Below are positions 24,208 to 27,942 of a stretch of DNA of 64,000 nucleotides, one piece after another; within the stretch, counting starts at the first letter, position 1; the number at the start of each line of letters is the position of its first letter. The notes under the pieces are model-generated. The model saw nothing but the letters and a program-made list of their open reading frames with translations. It was not told where the DNA came from and did not search any database. The position numbers and the translations under genes were made by a program. The stretch lies in NCBI RefSeq assembly GCF_058153355.1, contig NZ_CM177019.1; one strand, given 5' to 3'.

Positions 24208-24468
24208 TTAGTCCTCCAAATCAATATCAACCTGGTGGTGGGCAATGGTTTCAGCCATGTACCGGATGTGTTCTGCCATGCGCTCCTGAAACTCAACATC
24301 ATCATCAAATGCGTGGCTGATTGCCTGTTTATTGGCACCGTGGCGTTGCAAATGGTCGATGCAGAGCGATTCAAACAGGTGCTGAGGCAGACCTTTTTCC
24401 AGGTCGTCCGCCAGTTCCGTTTCTTTTTCTTCACGAACGATCTGCTGGTAGTGACGAGCCCATGCCAT
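24208..24468 (-). CDS. hypothetical acidic protein
   Basis: 86-aa ORF tightly coupled upstream of the ATPase gene. Confidence 0.5.
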
Positions 24469-24622
24469 TTCTTCAATACGATCAAAAATCGGGTAAGGCA
24501 GTATGACTTTCCGTGAGACAGATGCTGGCCAACGTGGGATATTTAACGCGGGTTAACATCGTTGTCAGAGCCGCATGGGTGAGCTGTTGCTACACCCCGG
24601 TATTTCCACCACGGAGGCCAGC

Positions 24623-25750
24623 ATGAACAACAATAACACATTGTACGTCGGGTTAGATGTTCACAAAGAATCGATTACTGTCGCTTATGCTATCAATTCA
24701 GAACCTGTTGAACTGATGGGTAAAATTGGCACATCACCTACTGATATTCAGAATCTTTGTAAACGTCTCAGGTCAAAGTCATCGCAGGTCAGTATCGTTT
24801 ATGAAGCGGGGCCCTGTGGTTATGGACTTTATCGTCGGCTGGTGAAATCCGGTTTTGACTGCATGGTCTGCGCCCCCTCACTTATCCCGAAAAAACCGGG
24901 GGAGCGGGTTAAAACCGATCGCCGTGATGCCATCAGACTTGTGCGTTCACTGCGTGCAGGAGATCTTTCTGCTGTCTACGTACCCGGCATTGAAGATGAG
25001 GCATTCCGGGATTTGGCCCGGGCATGGGCATCTGCCCGCGATGATTTACGGCATGCAAGGCAACGTCTGAAATCGTTTCTTCTGGTTCATGGGGTCCATT
25101 ATGTCGGGCGAGCAGATTGGGGCCCTGCACACCGACGCTGGCTCAGCAAATACTCATTCGAAAGTCCCTGGCGACAATTAGCTTTTGACGAACACCGTCG
25201 TACAATAGAAGACCGGCAGGCACAATGTGAACGGCTGGAATCCGCCCTGAAGGAGGCCGTTACCGAATGGAGGCTGTATCCGGTAGTAGAGGCGCTGCAA
25301 GCCATGCGAGGGATTCAGTTTATTACTGCGGTTGGATTAATTTCTGAACTGGGTGATCTGACCCGTTTTGAACATCCACGACAACTGATGTCATGGTTTG
25401 GTATCACGCCATCAGAATATTCATCGGGTGGAAGCAGACATCAGGGCAGCATTACCAAAGCCGGAAACAGCTATGCCAGAAAGCTATTGGTCGAGGCAGC
25501 GTGGAGTTACCGTCATCCGGCACGCATCAGTCCGGCAATACAAAAAAGGCAGGAAAATTTACCCCGCCCCGTCATTGACAGAGCATGGGATGCTCAACTC
25601 AGGCTTTGTAAGAGGTATCGAAAACTTCAGGCCAAAGGAAAGAATGTCAATATTACAATTGTTGCTGTTGCACGTGAGCTGGCGGGTTTTATCTGGGATA
25701 TGGGCCGAATAGCAATGTCTGTCGCACAACAACCACAATGTCACAAATAA
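24623..25750 (+). CDS. IS110-family (DEDD) transposase
   Basis: 375 aa from MNNNNTLYVGLDVHKESI (ggagg SD at 24613). Has the N-terminal RuvC-like LYVGLDVHK motif and the C-terminal Tnp-domain pattern MRGIQFITAVGLISELGDLTRF...GITPSEYSSGG. Confidence 0.9.
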   Translation: MNNNNTLYVGLDVHKESITVAYAINSEPVELMGKIGTSPTDIQNLCKRLRSKSSQVSIVYEAGPCGYGLYRRLVKSGFDCMVCAPSLIPKKPGERVKTDRRDAIRLVRSLRAGDLSAVYVPGIEDEAFRDLARAWASARDDLRHARQRLKSFLLVHGVHYVGRADWGPAHRRWLSKYSFESPWRQLAFDEHRRTIEDRQAQCERLESALKEAVTEWRLYPVVEALQAMRGIQFITAVGLISELGDLTRFEHPRQLMSWFGITPSEYSSGGSRHQGSITKAGNSYARKLLVEAAWSYRHPARISPAIQKRQENLPRPVIDRAWDAQLRLCKRYRKLQAKGKNVNITIVAVARELAGFIWDMGRIAMSVAQQPQCHK

Positions 25751-25767
25751 AAAATGAGAATAACCAG

Positions 25768-25954
25768 TTCCCTGAAGGCGACGTAGCCCGGTACAAGAGT
25801 AACCCACGTTAGCGCTTGGCGACGGCGGAACAAAGCTGATTCGCGACGTAAGAAAGTGGCAGGCTCATATGACGGACCTCTGTAATGCGGTATCCAACCC
25901 GCGAATATCAGCGTGATTCACCGTCGGATTTACTGCTACGTCGCCCTCAGGGAA
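25768..25954 (+). ncRNA. predicted structured non-coding RNA in the IS 3' end (candidate bridge/seek guide RNA)
   Basis: A 20-bp closing stem pairs 25768..25787 with 25935..25954 (one A/C mismatch). Nested stems pair 25820..25825 with 25921..25926 and 25835..25845 with 25900..25912. No credible ORF. Confidence 0.5.
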
Positions 25955-26013
25955 TTAAACCTAAAAAGAAAATCGTCAAAATTAGAGATTCCGGTTTGAC
26001 ACGGAAAGTCATA

Positions 26014-27942
26014 TCAGCGCTCATCACTGGTCACTCCAAAATTTTCAAGCTTGTTGGCAATCATCATTGCGATGTCAGGGATTGCAGGCGCATAGGCTAT
26101 GCACGCAGGATTCGCACATAAACCGTAAACCGCCGCAATCAACACCTGTTTTTTCCAGTTGAGTTCATCTTCGCCAGTTTCATTATTGCTATCATTATGC
26201 TGATCGCTGCCAGCGTTCTCCGGTAACAAATCATCAGCTTTTTCCGTTTTCTTCGGCTCTTCTTCCTGTGCTTCATCTGGTTTTTTTTCGTCAAAAGTTT
26301 CCTGATAAGTTGCGTCTCCCATCACCGCGCCACAGTCAGGGCAGTTATCCTCGCCAGTCTGATTGCAGGGTGTTCCCTCCTCCGGTTCGCTGTTCTGGTG
26401 CTGTTTATCTTCAGTCTGTCGCACTTCATTTTCCGTTTTTTTGACTTCATTTGAGGAGATATGATGACCGGGAATCCATTTCGAATCATTCGGGTCGCTA
26501 ATCCCTTCAACAAATTCTCCGCGAGAGGCAGCCAGTAATTTGTCTGCATCGACAGGATTTTTGGGCGGAATGTTTTTCCGGGCTTCATGGAGTTCTGCCC
26601 GTAGTTCCTGATATTTCTCATCAACAGAATTTACCTGTGACTGAGCATCCAGCGGCTGCGTGTTCTGATGATGTTCAGTTGCATCCGGTTCCATTGTTTC
26701 AGCTGTTGCCTGTTCATCTGCCATTGCGCCAGATGGCTGCGGTTTTTCTTCATCATCCTGTTTTCCTTCTTCTGTTACACGTTGCGGCATCGGGGCAGAG
26801 GAGCGACCGCAGGCAATATCCACGATTTCCGGATCAGGGTTGGCATGATCGGTTTCAGTCAGTACCTTGTTCAGATATTCAGTGACGTGCGTGGGGATGA
26901 CCTCGATACCAATCGGTGCTTCTTTCACTGACGCAACCACGATGGCGCGGGAATAATCCAGCCCGCCAGGCATGGTGATGAATTTGTCGCGGAAAACAGA
27001 AAAGGGCGGTTTATTTTCAGCGATAATTTCCTCAATGCGTTTAGCGTGTGCCGGATGAAGGTTATAAATGTCCACGTCCATTGAACGAGCCAGTACGCCA
27101 GTGGCTACGTCGCGCGCCAGTGACGTCAGATCGTGAACGAAACCTTCGCCGCGATCGGTGAGGTTCCCGCCGCCAGCATTAGCACCGGAAGCCGTGCGCG
27201 TGATGCGTGAAACACGATTTCCTTTCATCCACTCTTTTGTCAGCAGACCGCGATCGGTGTAGTTGGCATCCCGATATGCTTCGAAAAAAGCAGTCATCAG
27301 TCCCAGATTTGAATTGCCAGGATTAGGGAAAACTTTGTCAGTATCACGCACGAGTTTGTGGAGATCGCGAATTTCCAGCGGGGCGAGCAGGCTGGTTTTA
27401 TGCGAAACAGCCAGGGCAGTAACAGCTGGTAGTTCCTCAGCCCGTGCAATGTGTAATGCCTGGAGTTCGTCGCGTGAAACGTGCGTTACCGGTTTTTCGC
27501 TGCCGTGTTGAGCAAGCCAGCGAATGGGCAGCTCCTGACCAGAAATCGGGAGTAGCATATTCTCCTCAATCTCCGTCATGTCTTCGCCATTAACATTGGT
27601 ATTGTCAGTGCTGGCTGGTTTGTCCTGCGCAGAGGGTGAGGGCGCGATAAATACCATTGTGATGCCATCTTCCCCGCCTTTTTCGTAACGGTTGCAGAAT
27701 TCCGTATCAAACACGCCTTCTGGGGGGAGGTCATCAACAACGGGCAAATTGACGCGAACAGGTTTTTTAAAGTCATCTTCATCGTAGCCTGCATCGTCAA
27801 TCGCAACAGCACCACGGGAGATGGCAATGGATAATTTTTTCGCTTCAGCCCAGTAAAAACCGCCTTTAATACCGAGGCGTTTTCTTACTTTGTCATTTTT
27901 TGCTTCGTAATACAGTGGGTAAACTTGTTTATCGGTGCTCAT
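26014..27942 (-). CDS. large hypothetical early protein with acidic, Cys-containing C-terminal region
   Basis: 642-aa ORF. The C-terminal roughly 230 aa are rich in E/D/Q and contain [13 protein letters not shown]. The stop codon lies immediately at the IS boundary. Confidence 0.6.

Follow-up and report, generated by a model that had tools for sequence, protein, structure and literature searches.

Does the non-coding tail of an insertion sequence lodged in a prophage encode the RNA by which the element selects its site and, if so, which nucleotides of that RNA read the target? The question is raised by a locus in a stretch of 64,000 nucleotides from contig NZ_CM177019.1 (NCBI RefSeq assembly GCF_058153355.1), here called the window and numbered from its first letter. 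Positions 24498-26017 hold a single intact copy of ISSso6, an ISfinder-listed member of the IS1111 group of the IS110 family, and its 3' non-coding region very probably encodes a bridge (seek) RNA of about 190 nt, in the same sense as the transposase gene (tnp). Both the element and its right-end bridge RNA are already on record, and the first-pass annotation of this DNA had the class, an ordinary one, right, whereas the guide nucleotides and the ends that it named are wrong.

A megablast search with 1512 nt of the window found 100% identical copies of ISSso6 in E. coli chromosomes and in plasmids of E. coli and Shigella, annotated in both groups as 'IS110-like element ISSso6 family transposase'. 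The count is 185 places in 125 E. coli genomes and 44 Shigella plasmids, a single genome holding as many as 16. The window protein is the same as that given for ISSso6 in the supplementary material of two papers of 2024 (Durrant et al. 2024; Siddiquee et al. 2024, PMC11187229), and because Supplementary Table 5 of the former lists ISSso6 with RE (right end) as 'Detected Bridge RNA End' and IS1111 as group, a right-end bridge RNA had already been predicted for it.

The exact ends came from the empty site. We joined the two supposed flanks and queried them against E. coli genomes, nine of which carry the prophage unoccupied at 98.6-98.9% identity, each match being 8 bp shorter than the query; the corresponding phage and plasmid searches returned only relatives at 84-88%, and the exact site was taken from the E. 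coli genomes. With a slash at the insertion point, the empty site (locus L002) reads ...CGGGTAAG / CGCTCATC..., or in a longer extract ...ATCGGGTAAG / CGCTCATCAC..., and the occupied one reads ...GGGTAAG-GCAG-(left repeat ... right repeat)-TCAG-CGCTCAT.... The 8-bp difference means that the element also includes a left GCAG and a right TCAG, which places its ends at 24498 and 26017. Several strains with the unoccupied prophage carry ISSso6 elsewhere. The element, its ends and its target are as follows:

24498-26017, plus strand: complete ISSso6, 1520 bp (the shared AG permits 24496-26015 equally)
24498-24501, plus strand: left terminal extension GCAG, absent from the empty site; NCAG in all relatives
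24502-24515, plus strand: left subterminal inverted repeat, TATGACTTTCCGTG
26000-26013, plus strand: right subterminal inverted repeat, CACGGAAAGTCATA
26014-26017, plus strand: right terminal extension TC with the element's own copy of the AG core; TCAG or TCAA in relatives
24493-24497, plus strand: left target half GTAAG, its last two bases being the AG core, from the empty site
26018-26021, plus strand: right target half CGCT, from the empty site
24208-24497, minus strand: 3' part of the interrupted prophage gene gam, by matches to phage Gam; Gam is intact in L002

ISSso6 is thus inserted at GGGTA-AG^CGCTCAT, in the gam gene of a lambdoid prophage, and the target is not duplicated, since the AG is common to the target and the right end of the element. 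The perfect 14-bp inverted repeats sit 4 nt inside each true end, an arrangement shared by the relatives. It is by subterminal repeats that the IS1111 group is defined. The first-pass annotation had seen these repeats correctly and had mistaken them for the termini, to which the empty site adds 4 nt per side. For the same reason the junction strings that it derived are off: of its 'left flank' ggcag, four of the five bases are element DNA and only the first G lies outside, although gctcat, its right flank, is a true one.

Relatives for comparison were collected from one genome per species, which gave 80 loci with proteins 71-81% identical, nearly all in Paraburkholderia, Caballeronia, Cupriavidus and related genera. 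They share the layout AG / NCAG-TATGAC on the left and TTGACAC..GTCATATC(AG/AA) / on the right, with unrelated outer flanks. The tail alignments comprise 51-59 relatives at differing sites, two loci (L058 and L075) having been excluded because their non-coding tail is about 120 nt longer (388-400 nt), and the promoter counts given below refer to 38 distinct relatives. Aligned in this way, the tail contains a conserved block with the following elements:

25766-25957, plus strand: conserved bridge/seek RNA block of about 190 nt, aligned in relatives, with variable sequence on both sides
25768-25787 with 25935-25954, plus strand: closing stem S1, 20 pairs, 6 of them changed on both sides, 94% of cells paired
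25788-25790 and 25792 with 25872-25875, plus strand: stem S2' (CCG.U / ACGG), also found by RNAalifold
25797-25800 with 25863-25866, plus strand: stem S5
25804-25807 with 25856-25859, plus strand: stem S4, in which G-C becomes A-U exactly in the ISSso6 lineage
25819-25826 with 25835-25844, plus strand: stem S3, the distal hairpin
25887-25890 with 25899-25902, plus strand: hairpin S6 (GCGG / CCGC) of the 3' domain, invariant and predicted
25788-25875, plus strand: target-binding arm, made up of S2', S5, S4, an internal loop of 11x11 nt and S3

The tail folds at -88 kcal/mol, below all 200 dinucleotide shuffles (z = -4.4). Over all stems, 96% of cells are paired and 12 pairs show double changes, a result reached by 0/500 shuffles, and when the 3' partners are slid out of register as a control, pairing falls to 33-42%. 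RNAalifold independently recovers S1, S2', S5, S4, S3 and S6, the last of which stays a prediction because it never varies among relatives. The closing stem, which pairs at 19/20 positions in the window copy, had been proposed at these same positions (25768-25787 with 25935-25954) in the first-pass annotation, and its compensatory changes confirm it, as the shuffles and the stems kept through compensatory change bear out the broader proposal that the tail forms a structured RNA. At individual pairs C-G alternates with U-A (25792/25872; 24 and 22 sequences) and A-U with C-G (25826/25835; 21 and 17). Alternation with G-U is frequent; only a plus-strand RNA allows it, which indicates the sense strand as the RNA. 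What the non-coding end encodes is a structured RNA with conserved stems, as in the bridge and seek RNAs, and the size of the target-binding arm fits the short seekRNAs of 82-96 nt reported by Siddiquee et al. (PMC11187229).

A structured RNA becomes a guide only if part of it follows the target, and here the evidence is most specific. We computed the mutual information between each column of the RNA alignment and each position of the flanks and ends (LT and RT denote positions in the left and right target), and its peaks form two short runs, one on each strand of the 11x11-nt internal loop that S4 and S3 flank:

25810-25817, plus strand: right-target guide UAGCGCUU, in which 25814 to 25810 read RT+1 to RT+5, 25815-25816 the AG core and 25817 LT-3
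25848-25852, plus strand: left-target guide GUAAG, equal to the top strand at LT-5 to LT-1 including the AG core, and pairing with the bottom strand

RT+1 to RT+5 are complementary to 25814 to 25810 in 93, 95, 80, 83 and 69% of loci, and LT-3 to LT-5 are identical to 25850 to 25848 in 92, 93 and 80%. The signal persists when duplicates are removed. Across 40 distinct guide/target combinations the right guide keeps Watson-Crick pairing at 93/93/78/82/68%, which makes 165/200 pairs against 64.7 +/- 7.2 in shuffled data, and the left guide keeps 89/92/78% identity, or 109/144 identities against 57.7 +/- 5.3; for each of them 0/10,000 permutations did as well. The right guide takes the form of 29 distinct 5-mers among the relatives. 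Beyond the core, 25817 pairs with the cognate base LT-3 in 77%, and the last base of the right end against RNA position 25815 gives G/C 30, A/U 17, G/U 11 and A/C 0. About one third of the relatives end in TCAA and not TCAG (L010, L011, L014, L015, L025 and others), and an A at the end goes with a U at 25815. In the window copy UAGCGCUU pairs with top-strand AAGCGCT over seven contiguous pairs, and GUAAG equals top-strand GTAAG. Guide and target covary as expected of a bridge or seek RNA, the guides of ISSso6 predict the site at which the element is found, and together they would specify roughly GTAAG^CGY.

Comparing the loop nucleotides of relatives with their flanks was the check that the first-pass annotation had itself proposed, and two segments do covary; they are not the stretch that it had singled out. 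In its model, gaaagtGGCAGgctcaTATGAC (25852-25873) is a single loop composed of four junction strings and acts as a combined target and donor guide. All four strings are present where they were said to be, and the coincidence is nominally unusual, since only 1.1% of shuffles of the window copy contain a 22-nt stretch that 5-mers shared with the junctions cover in full. However, they were defined from the wrong boundaries, and they match ends and flanks exactly in the window copy but not in the relatives. GGCAGGCUC is invariant in relatives whose flanks are unrelated and supplies the 3' strands of S4 and S5; GCUCAU persists in 33/41 combinations although RT2-7 bears no relation to it (identity 26% on average); GGCAG stays the same with left ends GCAG, TCAG and ACAG alike; UAUGAC changes, yet TATGAC in the left end never does; and GAAAGU does not follow the variants of the right end. 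The make-up of the stretch is that of a structural segment: 25852 belongs to the left guide as its core base, 25856-25859 (GUGG) and 25863-25866 (GCUC) are 3' strands of stems, and 25869-25872 pairs with 25792-25795 in most relatives. With none of the four strings tracking ends or flanks, a combined guide at 25852-25873 is extremely improbable, and covariation with the insertion site belongs to 25810-25814 and 25848-25850.

The same annotation had paired cccacgtt (25803-25810) with aacgtggg in the left end (24531-24538). This complementarity is not conserved in relatives and was rejected; in all of them, 25799-25810 instead finds its complement in another left-end segment, 24549-24561. The segment, AACGCGGGTTAAC, matches 11/13 positions of GUAACCCACGUU, in the 5' strand of the target arm, in the window copy. 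Both stretches are kept throughout the relatives, and the G-to-A change of the ISSso6 lineage is compensated in S4 and not in the left end. It is conceivable, if doubtful, that the left-end segment couples folding of the RNA to its own transcript.

A conserved block beside inverted repeats might also be no guide at all, but a DNA site of the recombinase or a 3' untranslated region (UTR) or terminator, with the target chosen by the protein. The strong conservation of the block agrees with this, the nearby inverted repeats are obvious candidates for protein binding, and the RNA is here a prediction from sequence. Against it, 29 distinct states of one loop segment and 17 of the other go along with changes in the flanking target, at a protein identity of 71-81%; base pairing in the stems survives by compensatory changes and by G-U changes, which are strand-specific; and no terminator-like run of T follows the structure on the plus strand. 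In related elements, moreover, the RNA co-purifies with the transposase and is essential (PMC11187229). We judge the non-guide explanation very unlikely and retain a guide RNA that reads both halves of the target.

The donor side is less constrained. The 3' domain (25876-25934) most likely holds the donor guides, for which two candidates can be put forward:

25905-25912, plus strand: candidate donor guide AUAUCAG, which repeats the final 7 nt of the right end with its core, followed by C25912
25931-25937, plus strand: candidate second donor guide UACUGCU, of which UACUGC is complementary to left-end positions 1-6 (GCAGTA), with a G-U pair to the core G

RNA position 25912 equals RT+1 in 88% of loci and never the first base of the left end. 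Over 59 loci, left-end positions 2-11 and right-end positions -3 to -11 are invariant or nearly so, and for the second candidate the RNA partner is as invariant as the end that it would pair with.

On the mechanism that we propose, the 20-bp stem would close two domains, the target-binding arm and the 3' domain. The 5' loop strand UAGCGCUU would pair with top-strand LT-3, AG core and RT+1 to RT+4/5; AUAUCAG would match the right terminus and core while 25912 reads the first base of the right flank, in a handshake-like manner; and UACUG(C) at 25931-25936 would be complementary to the left terminus. Expression would probably be driven by a promoter that exists only once the ends join in an excised circle, whose junction, marked by a slash, would read ...CATATCAG / GCAGTATG..., also written ...GTCATATCAG / GCAGTATGAC.... 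The comparisons above show the identity of the element, its boundaries, the fold of the target arm and the covariation of guides with targets; donor guides, transcript ends, circle formation and promoter activity are the parts of this scheme that we infer. The halves of the candidate promoter lie at opposite ends of the element:

25996-26001, plus strand: outward-facing -35 half TTGACA, in 36/38 distinct relatives
24499-24504, plus strand: -10 half CAGTAT, with CAnnAT in 38/38 distinct relatives

In the simulated junction TTGACA and CAGTAT are separated by a 17-nt spacer, a spacing that is fixed in the relatives and arises only when the ends are joined. The earlier suggestion that the outward TTGACA could form part of a junction promoter is supported by this conservation, and promoters of this kind are known for ISEc11 and ISEc21 (PMC11187229 for ISEc11).

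In the window sequence no convincing promoter was found upstream of tnp in the integrated copy, which, together with the truncated ISSso6-like remnants present in many E. coli chromosomes, would also be compatible with a dead relic whose match between guide and target is only historical. Several findings speak for a mobile copy instead. It is 100% identical to many others, at up to 16 places in one genome, neither the open reading frame (ORF) nor either end is damaged, and the guides fit the site at which it sits; in addition, close strains carry this prophage unoccupied at 98.7-98.9% identity, which points to recent insertion. We consider a relic unlikely and the copy probably a recent, mobile insertion.

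Some points weigh against the reading of the tail as a bridge RNA with target and donor guides. The experiments of Siddiquee et al. were done on other elements, and for ISSso6 the RNA is read here from DNA sequence. A search of Rfam 15 with 24300-26250 retrieved no matching family, only minus-strand snoRNA noise at E > 2. The fold of the 3' domain is ambiguous: an alternative stem, GACGG/CCGUC (25871-25875 with 25921-25925), fits the data in place of S2', which we prefer for its true covarying pair. The putative donor guides are drawn from matches of only 5-7 nt, and UACUGC fits the GCAG of ISSso6 whereas its C mismatches the TCAG or ACAG of most relatives, for which only UACUG fits. Finally, the relatives are one clade, mostly Burkholderiaceae, and some of the covariation is for that reason inherited and not independent.

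Independent copies bear out the target that the guides predict. We read the whole Shigella dysenteriae plasmid NZ_CP026817.1 for ISSso6 ends: GTAAG precedes 9/9 left ends, and after the right end comes CGT or CGC in 8/9 copies and GCGT in one. Several copies lie within the terminal repeats of IS66-family elements, 5 bp from the end (GTAAG^CGT...; L084 and L086; right flanks at record positions 74575, 177225 and 190820); repeats of this family start with GTAAGCG (PMC12888890). From these flanks, IS66-family ends appear to be a habitual target of ISSso6, and the gam site in the window seems to resemble this short target by coincidence; because that target is only about 8 bp long, chance sites such as codons of gam are also used. 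The preference parallels that of IS4321 (IS4321/IS5075) for the inverted repeats of Tn21 and of ISEc21 for genes of the IS3 family, although, unlike those elements, ISSso6 has a target short enough to be met by chance. The plasmid also carries other IS110-family elements, namely ISEc20, ISEc11 and one unnamed (L083 25719-26975; L084 34497-35693 and 44091-45110), and multiple RNA-guided insertion sequences therefore coexist on one replicon.

The protein agrees with the assignment of the element to its family, as the first-pass annotation had claimed:

24623-25750, plus strand: transposase/recombinase gene, 375 amino acids, with a DEDD RuvC-like domain and a Tnp domain with an SSG serine motif

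Pfam returned PF01548 (DEDD_Tnp_IS110, E = 2.4e-11) and PF02371 (Transposase_20, E = 8e-24), and the Tnp domain aligns to the IS621 transposase 8WT6, with 'PSEYSSGG' opposite 'PRRYESGS', which contains S241. An N-terminal DEDD domain, a C-terminal Tnp domain with the SG serine, a specific site and no target-site duplication are the traits of the IS110 family, and to these the locus adds two of the IS1111 group: subterminal inverted repeats, whose range in the class is 7-17 bp, and a long non-coding region downstream of tnp. That region measures 267 nt past the stop against about 125 nt before the ATG, and with the entry 'RE / IS1111' in Durrant et al. (2024) it substantiates the layout recognised in the earlier note. 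Translation starts at the ATG at 24623, preceded by GGAGG and kept in relatives, and the gene ends at 25750. The identity of the protein to other ISfinder members is about 17-25% in the matrix of Siddiquee et al., and it resembles the IS1533 row of the alignment of Durrant et al.

ISSso6 shares with the IS1111-type elements ISEc11, ISKpn4, ISPa11 and ISPst6 (PMC11187229) the subterminal repeats, the long downstream non-coding region, the lack of target duplication, a promoter assembled at the circle junction (in ISSso6 a predicted one) and the order of the guides, the top-strand match lying 5' of the bottom-strand match. It differs in its 375-residue transposase, against 330-350 amino acids in typical IS1111 members, to which it is about 20-24% identical, and looks closest to an IS1533-like branch; its left terminal extension has 4 nt, that of ISEc11 7 nt. 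Like IS621 (Durrant et al. 2024; Hiraizumi et al. 2024), it has a DEDD plus serine recombinase and an RNA with an internal loop whose strands pair with opposite target strands and overlap at a 2-nt core. The AG core is CT on the other strand, as in IS621, and the guide layout is that of IS621 read on the opposite strand. However, the RNA lies at the 3' end and not at the 5' end, its guides run in the opposite order with respect to tnp, the 14-bp inverted repeats are long, unlike those of IS621, and the donor part is probably a multiloop where IS621 has a simple internal loop. Position 25912, as RT+1 and never a left-end base, resembles the handshake guides of IS621, whereas the pairing of 25817 with its cognate LT-3 (77%) is of the kind that in IS621 locks the complex and blocks strand exchange. 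It is conceivable, though on balance doubtful, that the handshake logic of the ISSso6/IS1533-like clade varies from that of IS621, given what 25912 reads and 25817 pairs with; if so, the clade may exchange strands in another order or rely on the RNA to find the right junction of an integrated copy when the element is excised.

Some further features of the locus and of its copies deserve mention. Upstream of tnp, GCUGGCC (24524-24530) pairs with GGCCAGC (24616-24622), which lies between the Shine-Dalgarno sequence and the AUG:

24524-24530, plus strand: 5' strand GCTGGCC of a 5'-UTR helix, pairing with 24616-24622

Relatives carry the compensatory variants GCUAGCC/GGCUAGC and GCUGACC/GGUCAGC, and the helix so conserved suggests that translation of the transposase is limited by it. 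In the prophage, ISSso6 splits codon 3 of a lambda-like gam in an operon of recE, gam and an AAA ATPase gene (minus strand; 24208-24497 and 26018-27942), the first 7 nt of gam, ATGAGCG, being at 26018-26024 on the minus strand. A recE-like ORF of 642 amino acids takes its TGA stop (26014-26016) from the element end. Among copies in E. coli, one variant (H11), 95.6% identical over 88% of the query, was considered as a naturally retargeted ISSso6 and ruled out, as it is frameshifted and truncated by another insertion sequence. An ISSso6-like remnant of about 420 bp, in two pieces, occurs in many E. coli chromosomes (H16-H35; query 895-1512, about 94.8% identity), is annotated just as 'transposase' and is probably an old decayed copy.

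A limited literature search found no published guide positions, AG core, 4-nt extensions or target for ISSso6. As the correct recognition of a known kind of element, the finding has little importance beyond annotation. What is added here are the exact ends of ISSso6 (1520 bp, with subterminal repeats and the AG core), the positions of two target guides and the target rule GTAAG^CGY, which would explain both the build-up of the element at IS66-family ends on Shigella virulence plasmids and the hit in gam. For the family, the alignment of relatives offers about 29 natural retargeting events for engineering an IS1111-type recombinase.

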